Positions 1,254 to 19,373 of a stretch of DNA of 46,713 nucleotides are shown here, piece by piece. The DNA comes from a phage: sequence record PZ379183.1, one strand, 5' to 3'. Made by a program: the position numbers and the translations under genes. The notes beneath the pieces were generated by a model that was not told the origin of the DNA, ran no database searches, and saw only the letters and a list, made by a program, of their open reading frames with translations. Each line of letters opens with the position of its first letter. Position 1 is the stretch's first letter.

Positions 1254-1487
1254 GTGATGGAAAGGAGCAAATATGAAAGAGAGATTATCGGGCTTAATGG
1301 CGAGCGTGCTATTGTTGATGTGTATCGCACGCTATCAGCGTTCAACGTTACAGACCCGGCGTGTCAGCATGCAATTAAAAAGCTTCTATGCATGGGTTTG
1401 CGAGGCCACAAGGACGTAATTACTGACCTTGATGACGCAATAGACTCACTGAACAAGATGAAAACTTACCTGGAACAAACGAAATGA
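1254..1487 (+). CDS. hypothetical protein (77 aa)
   Basis: ORF with AAAGGAG RBS. Confidence 0.5.
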   Translation: MMERSKYEREIIGLNGERAIVDVYRTLSAFNVTDPACQHAIKKLLCMGLRGHKDVITDLDDAIDSLNKMKTYLEQTK

Positions 1488-1717
1488 TTACAATTAACCT
1501 GTCAGAGAAAGATGCAGCAATCCTTAAATCGATCATAATGAAGCCGATGTACTCTACGCTCACCTTTGAGCAGATGCGTGTCGTAAAAGAGACTAGCGCG
1601 CAAATCAACAATCAGCAGTTCGACGTATCAGACTTCGAGTCATCTCGCCAGTACGAAGCTCTAAGCATCCAGAATGCTGGCTACCTCACTAACTGGGATA
1701 AGGCGACAAAGAAATGA
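1484..1717 (+). CDS. hypothetical protein (77 aa)
   Basis: ATGA start/stop overlap with upstream ORF (translational coupling). Confidence 0.5.
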   Translation: MITINLSEKDAAILKSIIMKPMYSTLTFEQMRVVKETSAQINNQQFDVSDFESSRQYEALSIQNAGYLTNWDKATKK

Positions 1718-14655: not shown

Positions 14656-15333
14656 TTGATTTGGAGGTGTATTATTGCTCATTTATCAAACGGCACTCAG
14701 GTCTTCGTAGAAGGCACTAGGGGAGCTGCTATCGACGTAACTGCAATTTCCAATGCTGTTACTCCTGTTTTAACTTTGTCCAGCGTTGCCGATATTGCAC
14801 GCGGTGATTACCTGCTATTTACCAGCTCAGCTTCGACCCTGCTGGCTGATAAGCAAGTTCGCGTTACCGAGGTATCTGGTTCAACCGTAACTGTTGAAGG
14901 TATTGATACCTCCAACACCACTAAGTTACCAGCTGGCTTAACTGGTGAAGTTGTTAAGATTCTTACTTGGTTTGAAGTTCCTTGTGTTCAGGACGTATCC
15001 ACTGATGGCGGCGAACAGCAGTTCGTTAACTTCCAGTGTTTATCTGATGATCGTGAGCAGCAGATTCCAACTTATAAGTCTGCGGTAACCAACACCTACA
15101 CGTTTGCGCACGAATACACCAACCCGGTATATCCGATTCTGCGTAACTATGACGAAGCTGGTACTGTTGTTGCTATTCGTCTGTTCGTACCTCGAGCTAG
15201 CGAGATGCGTCTCCAGTCTGGCACTATCGCTTTCAACGACACCCCAAGCATTGGTGTTAACGAAATCGAAACGGTATCCATCGCGGTATCTATCCGTGGT
15301 AGGTTGAGTTCTGTAGCTTCTGAACTGTCATAA
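14656..15333 (+). CDS. major tail protein (putative)
   Basis: 225-aa Thr/Val/Ser-rich ORF followed by strong terminator and preceding chaperone genes; start codon uncertain (TTG at 14656 or in-frame ATT after GGAGGTG). Confidence 0.55.
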   Translation: MIWRCIIAHLSNGTQVFVEGTRGAAIDVTAISNAVTPVLTLSSVADIARGDYLLFTSSASTLLADKQVRVTEVSGSTVTVEGIDTSNTTKLPAGLTGEVVKILTWFEVPCVQDVSTDGGEQQFVNFQCLSDDREQQIPTYKSAVTNTYTFAHEYTNPVYPILRNYDEAGTVVAIRLFVPRASEMRLQSGTIAFNDTPSIGVNEIETVSIAVSIRGRLSSVASELS

Positions 15334-15340
15334 ATATAAA

Positions 15341-15360
15341 CCCTCTTCGGAGGGTTTTTT
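15341..15360 (+). terminator. rho-independent terminator
   Basis: CCCTC-TTCG-GAGGG hairpin followed by T6. Confidence 0.8.
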
Positions 15361-15382: not shown

Positions 15383-15441
15383 GACCAAATCGCGGATTGC
15401 TGTATAGTTCATTCATCGAAACGAAATGAGATATTAGTGAA

Positions 15442-15690
15442 ATGAACAACGTTAAAAACATCATCAAACTTGCTGCTGCTCTTGGTGCTTTCTACCTGGC
15501 AATTCAGATTGTTAACCCAACTGGTGGCGAAACCGCAAACTCTGATGCAATAAAGTATGAACATGAATTTAATAGTGCATACTCGCATTGTGAAAAAGTA
15601 GCTGGCGATAAGACAAACCAGATTCTGCACTATGGTCGTGAAGTGTGCACCGAAGTTGCTCACAACATTGTAAAAAACGAATCAAAGTAA
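15442..15690 (+). CDS. small secreted/periplasmic protein (signal peptide, 2 Cys)
   Basis: N-terminal MNNVKNIIKLAAALGAFYLAIQIV hydrophobic signal-like segment; own motif-type promoter; inserted between major tail and chaperone genes. Confidence 0.45.
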   Translation: MNNVKNIIKLAAALGAFYLAIQIVNPTGGETANSDAIKYEHEFNSAYSHCEKVAGDKTNQILHYGREVCTEVAHNIVKNESK

Positions 15691-15725
15691 TATAATCATT
15701 CAACACAAACAAAGGAGATAACGAG

Positions 15726-16040
15726 ATGGCAAAATTTAAACTTTCACTTAAGGCGCTGCCTGACTTTAAACTTCCGGTTAAGTTTCAGTTAGCGAATGGT
15801 GAAGATGCAGAGGTGGTACTAACAGTTAAGCACAAGAAATCATCTGAACTTCAGGAGATTCTTAATCGTGAAAACTTCAGCACTAAAGAATTGATTAACG
15901 AAATCTGCTCTGACTGGGATTTAGAAGAACCATTTACCGATGAGAACGTAGATGAGTTTGCCAACCTTTTCCCTGGTGCCGTTCCATCACTGATGGATAG
16001 CTACATGAAAGCGCTAGCAGGTCAGCGAGTAAAAAACTAA
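15726..16040 (+). CDS. tail assembly chaperone (G-like)
   Basis: GGAGATAACGAGATG start; acidic 104-aa ORF immediately upstream of tape measure; ends at slippery heptamer. Confidence 0.6.
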   Translation: MAKFKLSLKALPDFKLPVKFQLANGEDAEVVLTVKHKKSSELQEILNRENFSTKELINEICSDWDLEEPFTDENVDEFANLFPGAVPSLMDSYMKALAGQRVKN

Positions 16041-16354
16041 AACGCGCAGTATACTTACAATACCAGTCACCGCCAACGGATGCTGAACTCGAAGCTATCG
16101 GAATGAAACGTTCCGATTATGAAGGTGATGAGCCTGAAGAGTTATACTTCGATGAAACAATGATGCAAAGCTGGGATGTGTACTGTGCCATGTCAACTCA
16201 ATGGCGAGTAGGGGCTTGCGGTGCCACAGGCCTTGATTATAATTGCCTTCCATTCTTGTTCAAAGTCTATAAAATAGATGATGACGAAATGGTACTTAAC
16301 GACATCAGAATACTTGAGGGTAAAGCCTTAGATATGATGAACGCCAAGAAATAG
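15726..16354 (+). CDS. tail assembly chaperone GT-like fusion via programmed -1 frameshift
   Basis: Slippery heptamer A-AAA-AAC at 16031-16037 in frame of upstream ORF; -1 frame is open from 16037 through ORF 16103..16354 with no stop (checked codon by codon). Confidence 0.55.
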
Positions 16355-16377
16355 CCATCCTTCGGGGTGGCTTTTTT
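16354..16377 (+). terminator. rho-independent terminator
   Basis: GCCATCC-TTCG-GGGTGGC hairpin followed by T6. Confidence 0.65.
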
Positions 16378-16391
16378 ATTATGGAGACAAC

Positions 16392-19373
16392 ATGGCAACT
16401 AACGAAATTGCTGGTATCACGCTAGCCGTCGACGTAGCTCAGGTCGATAAGGGTACGCAATCCTTACAGAAATTCAGGCAAGCAAACGAGCAAGCTGCAA
16501 CAGGCATTAATAGCTTCGTCAACGCCGAACTTGTAGCCAAGACTCAAGCAAGGGACACTGCAAGGCAGCTTGAGGAGCAGCGCAAATCTTTCGCATCACT
16601 TCAGCAAGCCATAGACCCAACCGCTGCTAAATTCCTGAAGTTGCAGAAAGCAGCAACAGATTTGGACAAAGCATTTGAATCCGGGATAGTTCCTGATGAT
16701 GAATTCTTCAGGCTTGGCTCTGTTATTGAAACTCAAATCAATAAGCTAAACAGGTCTAAAGCCGCTCTTAGCGAAGAAGGCAGGGCTGCACTACAGGCAT
16801 CAATAGATAAAGAGAAAGCAACAACAGCAGCGCAAAAGTTCATTCAATCTCTTGAGAACGAGGCGAATGCAGCAAGCCTGACAAGGACTGAACTTCTTCA
16901 GCTTAAGGCTGCTCAGCTAGGAGTTGGTGACCAGGCTGCACCGATTATCGACAGGATTGGAAAGGCTGCCGAGGCATCTGCGGTACAATTGCAGAAGCAA
17001 AGCTCCGCTTTTGTTAAGTCTGGGCTTAGTGCCGGTCAATACAAGCAAGCAATTCGACAGCTTCCAGCGCAGATTACAGATATCGGAACCTCTCTAGCTG
17101 GTGGTATCCCAATCTGGCTAATTGCAATTCAGCAGGGTGGGCAGATTAAGGATAGCTTTGGTGGTATTGCTAACACCGCAAGGTTCGCACTGGCAGCCAT
17201 TAACCCATTAACGGCAGTTGTTGGGACTTTGGGCTTGGCCCTCGGCGCTCTTGGTGTTGCTGCTTATCAGGCTGACAAGAACACTCGCGGACTAGCATCA
17301 ACGATAACATTGGTTGGCAACTCAACTATCACGTCGACAGCGCAGATAAATCAGGTTGTTGATGGAATTGAGAGTTCAACACTAGCCACGCGCGGACTTA
17401 TCCAGGAGATAGCTAACAGCCTGGTAGCAAACGGTAATCTGACTCTTACGCAGATAGATAAGATAACCAAGGCGACAGCACAATGGGCAACTGTAACATC
17501 AACAGACTCGAAAACTATTCTTGGATACTTTGATCAGATTACAAAGGACCCAATTCAAGGTCTGATTGCACTCGATAAGCAGTTCAACTTCCTTCAGTCT
17601 GGGCAATTGAAATACATTGAGAATATCAGGAAGACGGCTGGAGAAACAGAGGCTGTAACCGCAGCTACTGAGCTATTCGCTAACGTTATGGAAAACAGGC
17701 TAGCAGACGTAGCACTAAGCCTTAACCCTCTTGAGAGCGCATGGAATAGCTTCAGGAAGTTTGTAAGTGAGATTTGGGATGATATAAGCAAAAGGACGCT
17801 TGGGGCGCTTAACTTAATAACTGACGTTGTTGCTGGGACTATTGAGCAGATAAGGTCGTTAATAAACTCCGGTGATATCCTATTGGGCGAGTTTGCAATA
17901 GCAGCAACCAAGACACTTCAGTCAATACCTGGACTTGGCGATTTAGGCAATGAAGCAATCGCTGAGCAGCAAAAGATTGTTGATGCAGCTAAGAAGCAAA
18001 ATGAGGAGTTAGCAAAAAGCATAGCTGAGCGAGATGCGAGAATCAGGAAGGGTGAGCTTGGTTATGTCGAGAACAACAATAACACCAACCTTAGCGGCAA
18101 TAATGCATCAACCGATAAGGAGTTTGCAGCAAGGAAGAAGGCTCTTGCCGATGAGTATGATGCGATAAAGAAAGCAAGGAGTGAGAGGAAAAAGGCTGTA
18201 AAAGAAGAAAGTGATTTAACTTTATCTTATGAATCTGGCGTTCTTGCACTTCAGGCTCAGTTAAAGGTCTTACAAGAGCACAGAACGATAAATGATGTAA
18301 TAAGCAATGAAAGAAAGCAGTTATTCCAGGAAGAAGCGAAGTTTGCAATACTTGAACAAAGACAAGCGGATGGTACGCTTACAAAATCACAGGCTAAGCT
18401 ACTTGCGCAGAAGAATATCATTCTTGAACAGGCTAAACAGAAGGCTGAACTTGGTGACCAGATTGTGCTTCAGGAGAGGTCAAACAAGTTACTTGATGAC
18501 AACCTTAAGAAGACAATACAGATTACCAATGAGGCGAAGAATGTTTCACTTGCTGCGGGTCTATCCGAAAGGGAGCGGCAAAGGGCAGGAGAACTTCAGG
18601 CGCTAGAGTCCAATCAGGTAAACAAGGGTGGCTCTGTAAATGATGTTGATTTCCAAAATCTGCTGGAAGCAAGAAAAGAATACTACAGGCAGGAAGATAA
18701 CCTAAGGTCAGACTGGCAAGCTGGTGTAACTTCAACGCTTGCTGACTTAACTGAGAAGTACACTGACTTCAACCAAATTGCTAAGGATTTGACTGTCGCA
18801 GCTTTTGATGGAATTACCGACCAGATTACAAACCTTGTAACCACTGGAGAGACTAATTTCAGGGAGTTCACGGCAAACATACTGAAAATGATTGCGAAAA
18901 TTGCAACTCAGCTACTTTTGGTAAAGGCTATTGAATCTACAATTAAGAGCTTTGGTGGTGACACTGGAGCAGGTAGTGCCTTTGAGTCAATAAAGTCAGC
19001 AATTGGCTTTGCTGGTGGCGGCTACACTGGAGACGGCGGGAAGTATCAACCTGCTGGAACTGTGCACCGCGGTGAGTTTGTATTCACAAAAGAAGCTACA
19101 AGCAGGATTGGCGTTAAGAACCTGTACAAGCTAATGCGAGGTTATGCAAATGGCGGCGCTGTTGGTGGGCCCTCTGGCTATGCTAATGGTGGAGTTGTTG
19201 GTGGCACGAATGTCAGTGTTGGCGGCGTGACGGTTAACGTAAACTCTGGAATTGGTGGCGGAAATGATGCTAAGGCGATAGAATCTGGAGTCAAGGTTAT
19301 CGTTGCTGAGGAAATCAGCAAGTCATTCCAGCAGGGCGGAAGAGCCTTTGCTTATCTGAGGGGTTACAACTAA
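16392..19373 (+). CDS. tail tape measure protein
   Basis: 993-aa ORF, Ala/Gln/Leu-rich helical repeats with Gly-rich C-terminal region; position after chaperones. Confidence 0.85.
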   Translation: MATNEIAGITLAVDVAQVDKGTQSLQKFRQANEQAATGINSFVNAELVAKTQARDTARQLEEQRKSFASLQQAIDPTAAKFLKLQKAATDLDKAFESGIVPDDEFFRLGSVIETQINKLNRSKAALSEEGRAALQASIDKEKATTAAQKFIQSLENEANAASLTRTELLQLKAAQLGVGDQAAPIIDRIGKAAEASAVQLQKQSSAFVKSGLSAGQYKQAIRQLPAQITDIGTSLAGGIPIWLIAIQQGGQIKDSFGGIANTARFALAAINPLTAVVGTLGLALGALGVAAYQADKNTRGLASTITLVGNSTITSTAQINQVVDGIESSTLATRGLIQEIANSLVANGNLTLTQIDKITKATAQWATVTSTDSKTILGYFDQITKDPIQGLIALDKQFNFLQSGQLKYIENIRKTAGETEAVTAATELFANVMENRLADVALSLNPLESAWNSFRKFVSEIWDDISKRTLGALNLITDVVAGTIEQIRSLINSGDILLGEFAIAATKTLQSIPGLGDLGNEAIAEQQKIVDAAKKQNEELAKSIAERDARIRKGELGYVENNNNTNLSGNNASTDKEFAARKKALADEYDAIKKARSERKKAVKEESDLTLSYESGVLALQAQLKVLQEHRTINDVISNERKQLFQEEAKFAILEQRQADGTLTKSQAKLLAQKNIILEQAKQKAELGDQIVLQERSNKLLDDNLKKTIQITNEAKNVSLAAGLSERERQRAGELQALESNQVNKGGSVNDVDFQNLLEARKEYYRQEDNLRSDWQAGVTSTLADLTEKYTDFNQIAKDLTVAAFDGITDQITNLVTTGETNFREFTANILKMIAKIATQLLLVKAIESTIKSFGGDTGAGSAFESIKSAIGFAGGGYTGDGGKYQPAGTVHRGEFVFTKEATSRIGVKNLYKLMRGYANGGAVGGPSGYANGGVVGGTNVSVGGVTVNVNSGIGGGNDAKAIESGVKVIVAEEISKSFQQGGRAFAYLRGYN

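Follow-up and report, generated by a model that had tools for sequence, protein, structure and literature searches.

A probable −1 programmed ribosomal frameshift joining two tail assembly chaperone reading frames in a T1-like siphophage

We analysed a 46,713-nucleotide stretch of phage DNA (sequence record PZ379183.1; hereafter the window) and conclude, at a probability of about 0.9, that the tail assembly chaperone gene it carries contains a programmed −1 ribosomal frameshift site. The source phage is a T1-like coliphage, a siphophage of the Drexlerviridae, subfamily Braunvirinae. In the mechanism we propose, most ribosomes would read 15726..16037 and stop at the UAA at 16038, giving a 104-residue analogue of lambda gpG. 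A small fraction of ribosomes would slip back by one base on the heptamer A_AAA_AAC at 16031..16037, where the tRNA-Lys on AAA and the tRNA-Asn on AAC would re-pair with AAA AAA. Reading would then restart at the CUA at 16037..16039 and end at the UAG at 16352..16354. The rare product would be a 209-residue fusion with the junction ...GQRVKN-LKRAVYLQ..., bearing a DUF1799 domain as the analogue of gpT. Under a slip of both tRNAs, the predicted Asp-N/Glu-C junction peptide is DSYMKALAGQRVK-N-LKRAVYLQYQSPPT, and a K in the place of the N would add 14.05 Da. We infer both the efficiency of the shift and its ribosomal nature.

Megablast with 15400..16700 as the query returned 16 Escherichia phage records, all of them Drexlerviridae of the subfamily Braunvirinae. 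The best matches (ES, AN_ECEAS, TR2, TR3, Rao1 and CY1) were 95% identical over that query. The genes of the region follow the order major tail protein, chaperone, DUF1799 ORF, tape measure protein (Table 1). Both chaperone ORFs therefore lie between the major tail protein and tape measure genes, the position characteristic of the chaperone frameshift class considered below. A preliminary description of this DNA, made from the sequence alone, had taken the product of 15726..16040 for a tail assembly chaperone, the −1-frame ORF for its second partner and the gene downstream for the tape measure gene, and profile searches bore out all three. The first ORF matched Pfam PF08748 (Phage_TAC_4; E=1.2e-32, residues 1-104) and the −1 frame matched Pfam PF08809 (DUF1799; E=4.8e-14) and phrog_680. 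Both Pfam matches passed their gathering thresholds, with 113.2 bits against 21.1 for Phage_TAC_4 and 52.8 bits against 26 for DUF1799, and the T1 and HK578 proteins matched these two families as well. The tape measure gene matched TMP_2 (5.8e-48), Tape_meas_lam_C (3.6e-16) and phrog_24 (E=2e-238), and the tail tube gene matched Phage_tail_3 (E=5.6e-66) and phrog_584. In most homologues AGGAG or AGGA stands before G at the same place as the Shine-Dalgarno sequence of the source phage.

Table 1. Features of the tail chaperone region (coordinates are those of the window)
Feature	Coordinates	Strand	Remarks
Major tail tube protein gene	14656..15333	+	Presumed partner of the T domain
Shine-Dalgarno sequence AGGAG of G	15713..15717	+	8 nt 5' of the G start codon
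Chaperone ORF, gpG analogue	15726..16040	+	104 aa, 11.8 kDa; TAA at 16038..16040
Two-frame overlap	16001..16037	+	12 codons; only stretch permitting a productive −1 shift
Slippery heptamer A_AAA_AAC (candidate slip site)	16031..16037	+	P-site AAA (Lys), A-site AAC (Asn)
Zero-frame stop TAA	16038..16040	+	Adjoins the 3' end of the heptamer; position conserved
−1-frame extension, putative gpT analogue, DUF1799	16037..16354	+	105 codons and TAG
ATG used by gene callers for the 83-aa 'TfmS'	16103..16105	+	No Shine-Dalgarno sequence upstream
Terminator-like hairpin and T-run	16353..16378	+	Separates the T frame from the tape measure gene
Tape measure protein gene	16392..19373	+	993 aa; presumed client of G and GT

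Several further elements were seen around the two ORFs. After the tail-tube terminator and before the chaperone gene lies an 82-aa ORF (15442..15690; phrog_22925). At this position T1 has no gene and phage TR1 has a different ORF of 126 aa, and the 82-aa ORF seems to be a variable insertion. At its 3' end there is a promoter-like TTGTAA-17-TATAAT (15668..15696), just before the chaperone ribosome-binding site. The GC-rich terminator-like hairpin that follows the T frame recurs in 34 of 34 distinct homologous contexts inspected, with stem sequences that differ and apparently covary. At least five T residues follow a stem below −8 kcal/mol in 24 of these 34 contexts, and the T1 and HK578 records list the equivalent hairpin as a rho-independent terminator. 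A second terminator-like element follows the major tail gene (15338..15357). The two terminators could set the stoichiometry of tube protein, chaperone and tape measure protein by transcription.

The heptamer had been described as lying in the zero frame of the chaperone ORF just before its stop, and the sequence bears this out: 16029..16040 reads GTA AAA AAC TAA in the frame of ATG 15726, after the upstream codons ...CAG CGA, which puts A_AAA_AAC in the X_XXY_YYZ register. ORF 16103..16354 is in the −1 frame relative to ORF 15726..16040 and is the portion of that frame from its first ATG onward. The −1 frame is open into this ORF as the preliminary description had it; however, it does not open at 16037, as was also proposed, but is already open from 16001, following a stop at 15998..16000, and runs to the TAG at 16352..16354. 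Within the 12-codon overlap of the two frames, the only in-frame Z_ZZN or X_XXY_YYZ motifs are A_AAA and A_AAC, both inside the heptamer. Joining 15726..16037 to 16037..16354, with base 16037 read twice, gives a conceptual GT of 209 aa and 23.9 kDa. The alignment to phrog_680 begins at residue 10 of the −1 frame, well 5' of ATG 16103. In phrog_17368, a profile of 213 positions, G covers 1-107 and the −1 frame covers 108-211, and this split match identifies the profile as one of fused G and T with its junction at the slip site.

We compared the arrangement across phages using the conceptual fusion as a tblastn query against phage records. The pair was found in 1130 records, 912 of which cover at least 80% of the query as two pieces. 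Identity in G ranged over 40-99% in the 95 loci retrieved, eight of them twice. In all of these loci but L054, no stop interrupts the −1 frame for at least 104 codons past the G stop. L054 (IMGVR_UViG_2974632794, ~1480..1500 of the locus) has A5 where the others have A6, with the T frame at +1 and the usual G stop lost; it is otherwise identical to five sequences of the L004 group. It was set aside as a counter-example, the A5/A6 difference being the sole one from five near-identical sequences. On this comparison a sequencing error in the homopolymer is the probable source of the A5, with a natural or laboratory variant as the less likely one.

Directly after the G stop, the −1 frame encodes the peptide LKRAVYLxYQxxPTDAELEAxG, which is conserved and gapless in all lineages. 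Over the 22 nominally intergenic codons before ATG 16103, the entropy per −1-frame codon position was 0.69/0.54/1.40 (63 distinct DNA contexts), highest at the third position, a pattern like the one obtained with the same measure within G (0.75/0.42/1.57). By this measure the linker evolves as coding sequence in the −1 frame, from the first codon past the G stop. Most homologous lineages have Leu or Phe where ATG 16103 encodes Met, and the first ATG of the −1 frame falls, according to lineage, at codon 5, 17, 20, 35, 39 or 48 past the G stop. Shine-Dalgarno matches before second-ORF starts in homologues amount to 0-3 bases at the first ATG and do not exceed 5 where a GTG or TTG occasionally offers a start, and a convincing Shine-Dalgarno sequence for any second-ORF start was found in none of the homologous loci. 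To judge from these alignments, ATG 16103 is probably just an internal methionine codon of GT. Together, the comparisons of frame, linker, ATG and Shine-Dalgarno sequence indicate that the second ORF is translated but has no start of its own. The proposal that it is joined to the first ORF is thereby upheld, with no conserved start in the second ORF and with coding constraint that reaches the slip site.

In the source phage, ATG 16103 is buried in the stem of a 9-bp hairpin (16097..16117; AUCGGAAUG AAA CGUUCCGAU). This hairpin is present in the closest relatives and is not conserved family-wide; where present, it would make separate initiation at this ATG still less likely.

With the T part as query, a full HMMER scan matched 447 clusters among 1.84 billion representative proteins. 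Among the best 150 of these, with lengths of 50-142 aa, no in-frame G-T fusion was found. A word-indexed search of 5.8 billion proteins with the 209-aa fusion gave no match, which, set beside the 1130 tblastn records and the 447 HMMER clusters, is a property of the index and not of the biology.

Variation at the slip site was examined in 42 distinct homologous contexts. The fourfold-degenerate position 16031 is A in all 42, with the codon alternating between GTA (Val) and GCA (Ala), and the fourfold sites of four upstream codons (16016, 16019, 16022 and 16028) take all four bases. The Lys codon at the slip site is AAA in 40 contexts and AAG in two, and the codon that follows is AAC in 33, GTT or GTC in eight and GCC in one. 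For the G stop the counts are 40 TAA and two TGA. The −1-frame Leu codon overlapping this stop is CTA in 35 contexts, TTA in five and CTG in two; the restriction to these three codons means that a zero-frame stop directly past the heptamer is preserved. In its structural genes the source phage prefers AAG for Lys (65%), yet the slip site has AAA; among the Val codons, 28% are GTA. The invariant A at 16031 and this use of AAA show selection on the slip-site nucleotides.

The only nucleotides invariant over all Drexlerviridae contexts are A_AAR (42/42). Klebsiella webervirus relatives (L005-L007, L056-L090) have GCA AAA GTY (or GCC) TAA in place of the heptamer, and in L025-L029 the site reads GCA AAG GTC TAA; in both groups only the A_AAR tetramer is left, at the same codon and with one codon between it and the stop. 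Both the webervirus A_AAA_GTY and the A_AAG_GTC of L025-L029 look like derived tetramer-type sites. Phages that carry the same two Pfam families at a greater distance include HK578, a Ralstonia phage (CGG GGA AAC TGA), a Stenotrophomonas phage (GAG GGA AAC TGA) and a faecal phage (CTG GGA AAC TCC TAA), and in these alignments X_XXA_AAC is a recurrent motif among the distant relatives. A slippery motif is thus conserved in register within the overlap, as A_AAR in the Drexlerviridae and as X_XXA_AAC farther away.

Four other explanations were weighed against a ribosomal shift of both tRNAs. One is that the heptamer is a chance occurrence next to a non-functional downstream frame, and the frequency of the string would allow it: AAAAAAC occurs 12 times on both strands of the window, against 15.0 ± 3.5 in shuffles. 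The in-frame X_XXY_YYZ rate in the window's long ORFs is 0.0024 per codon, so about 0.03 slippery heptamers are expected in the 12-codon overlap; the chance of a 118-codon frame staying open is about 0.001, estimated by hand from the base composition of the window. Decisive against chance is the conservation of the slip site and of the frame relation in homologues. With the DUF1799 match and the 447 clusters that match the T part, the chance reading is effectively refuted by these comparisons. Another possibility is that there is no recoding and that the second ORF is an independent 83-aa gene, 'TfmS', translated from ATG 16103. This is how phages IMM-001, TR1-TR3 and CY1 are annotated, and an ATG is indeed present, but we regard an independent gene as very improbable. 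Besides its missing Shine-Dalgarno sequence, its position in a hairpin stem and its unconserved Met, the 22 codons before the ATG show protein-level conservation, with −1-frame variation of the wobble type and no indels or stops in any lineage, and the T1 RefSeq version of such a gene has to begin 50 codons into the frame. The same frame change could also be made during transcription, if RNA polymerase added one A within the A6 run at 16031..16036 to give GTA AAA AAA CTA with the fusion in frame. The run exists, but homologues with A4 (webervirus), A3 (L025-L029) or GGGAAAC keep the identical arrangement, and the conserved register of run to codon is relevant to ribosomes and not to RNA polymerase. 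Baranov et al. in 2005 reportedly found that efficient slippage of E. coli RNA polymerase needs longer runs, about 8-9 or more, and A6 falls short of this. Slippage by the polymerase therefore seems to us a very slim prospect.

The remaining alternative concerns the number of tRNAs that would move. We lean towards a tandem slip of both, a detail made uncertain by the webervirus and L025-L029 sites, which let only tRNA-Lys re-pair. If a single tRNA slipped, tRNA-Lys (mnm5s2UUU) would re-pair from AAA 16032..16034 to AAA 16031..16033 on a Z_ZZN tetramer; the next codon would be AAA 16034..16036, the junction ...RVKK-LKR... and the AAC incidental. Such a slip would suit the invariance of A_AAR alone within the Drexlerviridae (42/42 contexts), as well as the A_AAA_GTY and A_AAG_GTC sites, which cannot re-pair the A-site tRNA and have nevertheless kept the frame arrangement; A_AAG and A_AAA tetramers are, moreover, used by IS elements (PMC4066793; PMC5009743). 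It is at odds with the retention of AAC in 33 of the 42 contexts. It is equally at odds with the three distant lineages that have G_GGA_AAC, which alter the first codon and keep the second, as a tandem X_XXA_AAC site predicts, and which have no A_AAA tetramer in register. On balance a slip of tRNA-Lys alone is a tentative, rather unlikely account of the source-phage site.

We looked for elements that might stimulate the shift. A stable, conserved stem-loop or pseudoknot 5-9 nt 3' of the heptamer, as at canonical programmed frameshift sites, was not found. The minimum free energy fold of the 83 nt past the site (16038..16120) had z = −1.9, mainly owing to the hairpin 60 nt away at 16097..16117, and the 181-nt context (16000..16180) had z = −0.8. 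RNAalifold with 29 homologues gave 0 consensus pairs downstream, and Rfam had no relevant match at the slip-site context. An upstream Shine-Dalgarno-like stimulator was considered and rejected, its candidate G-rich bases being freely varying third-codon positions.

In E. coli lacZ reporters, A_AAA_AAC gave 0.163% frameshifting when bare, 0.189% with IS911 stimulators and 0.739% with the IS3 pseudoknot; the corresponding values were 0.164%, 0.222% and 0.888% for GGGAAAC and 0.277%, 3.80% and 43.0% for GGGAAAG, the lambda motif (PMC4066793 supplement), over a reporter background of ~0.055% (PMC4066793). Bare X_XXA_AAC, at about 0.16%, ranks with the weakest motifs in these reporters. Stimulators raise the lambda G_GGA_AAG strongly (3.8-43%) and A_AAA_AAC hardly at all (0.19-0.74%) (PMC4066793). 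Given this weakness of A_AAA_AAC in E. coli, the GT fusion may be much rarer than that of lambda, where the frameshift occurs ~1 in 30 times (PMC5009743). A bolder reading, which we consider doubtful, is that a weak but strongly selected X_XXA_AAC abutting the stop would reflect either a GT:G ratio at least 10-fold below that of lambda or an undescribed stimulator in the form of the adjacent stop or the nascent peptide. The most conserved G peptide, YMxALAGQR-V/A-K, lies directly before the slip site, and it is our speculation that the adjacent stop and/or this conserved nascent peptide, YMxALAGQR(V/A)K, help the shift in its native context.

Because the word-indexed search gave nothing, structure prediction had no deep alignment. 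A single-sequence AlphaFold2 model of the fusion had a mean pLDDT of 47, with 60-75 in the G part and below 50 in the T part. Foldseek with this low-confidence model against the PDB gave a best E of 0.4, and no PDB sequence matched the fusion.

The preliminary description had called the two products G-like and GT-like, as in lambda. As an analogy of position and mechanism the comparison is sound; detectable homology was not found. As in lambda gpG/gpGT, two overlapping ORFs lie between the major tail and tape measure genes with the second in the −1 frame, a heptamer is placed near the end of the first ORF, and a long fusion would be made at a low level with no RNA stimulator required. The lambda site is G_GGA_AAG with a stop five codons downstream, whereas here the site is A_AAA_AAC and the stop directly adjoins it. 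The protein families also differ, PF06894 (Phage_TAC_2) and PF06223 (Phage_tail_T) in lambda against Phage_TAC_4 and DUF1799 here, and no homology to lambda G and T was detected by hhalign of the family alignments (probability 0.1-1.5%) or as a Pfam match to the lambda families. The lambda tape measure protein is coated by G and by the G portion of GT, and the T portion brings in the major tail protein. Virions contain neither G nor GT, and the frameshift efficiency determines the ratio of the two. The lambda system is said to have been worked out by Levin, Hendrix and Casjens in 1993 and by Xu, Hendrix and Duda in 2004, 2013 and 2014. By analogy, the G and GT analogues of the source phage would have the same chaperone roles.

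Two further systems are close in one respect or another. IS1 insA-insB' has an identical A_AAA_AAC that works in E. coli as a low-efficiency −1 shift fusing two ORFs; it is a proven frameshift site with no established stimulator (PMC4066793). The proteins, however, are unrelated, and the shift there controls the dose of transposase. Dhillonvirus HK578 gp15/gp16 has the same two Pfam families, the site GAA AAA AAC TAA and a terminator after the second ORF. It differs in belonging to another genus, in an overlap that consists of the heptamer alone and in a second ORF annotated from the G stop. Since the −1 frame of HK578 opens two codons before the G stop, a shift in that phage must fall inside the heptamer.

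The arrangement we describe is correctly observed but not new; it is the ordinary, already described one of T1-like and most other long-tailed phages. By gene order, frame relation and conserved slip motif, the site of the source phage fits the conserved chaperone frameshift class of Xu, Hendrix and Duda (2004). Among T1-like phages the frameshift is already on record: the entry for Klebsiella phage KLPN1 annotates it as a joined CDS, and genome announcements state it for Citrobacter phage Stevie (PMC4319613), E. coli phage U136B (PMC8104045) and Klebsiella phage Skenny (PMC6763657). These four Drexlerviridae phages have orthologous Phage_TAC_4 and DUF1799 proteins in the same gene order and with the same −1 relation. 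The Klebsiella relatives have A_AAA_GTY where the source phage has the full heptamer A_AAA_AAC, and T1 reads CGC GCA AAA AAC TAA at the same place. In the literature searched, the fusion of Drexlerviridae phages appears in annotation statements only, and experimental proof of it was found for none of these phages.

Elsewhere the fusion is missing from the records. T1 RefSeq lists ST40 and a truncated ST39, which begins 50 codons inside the frame, with the fusion unannotated, and the same omission applies to the closest relatives ES, AN_ECEAS, TR1-TR3 and IMM-001. AN_ECEAS is annotated with the first ORF only, and IMM-001 and TR1 have the second as a separate 'TfmS'. Product names at the chaperone locus are inconsistent or wrong in OR466728 (ES), NC_005833 (T1) and NC_049828 (haarsle): the small chaperone ORFs appear as 'minor tail protein', 'exonuclease' or 'tail length tape measure protein', and the second ORF as 'TfmS'. 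The practical value of the result lies in annotation. The second ORF should be given as a joined CDS, 15726..16037 with 16037..16354, whereas the closest deposited relatives and the T1 reference either give it an entry of its own (under the names 'TfmS', 'minor tail protein' and 'tail length tape measure protein') or leave it out. The flanking genes, too, gain firm support for their identification as tail tube and tape measure genes.

For the biology of these phages, the site is a further instance of the near-universal G/GT device. It is of mild interest for three features: a motif of low strength in E. coli, a stop that always adjoins the heptamer and a slip site that varies within the family. 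The slip-site variants form a natural series in one orthologous gene, including two sub-lineages with a bare A_AAA or A_AAG. If the weak-motif reading is true, this series would be useful for studying how frameshift efficiency is tuned.
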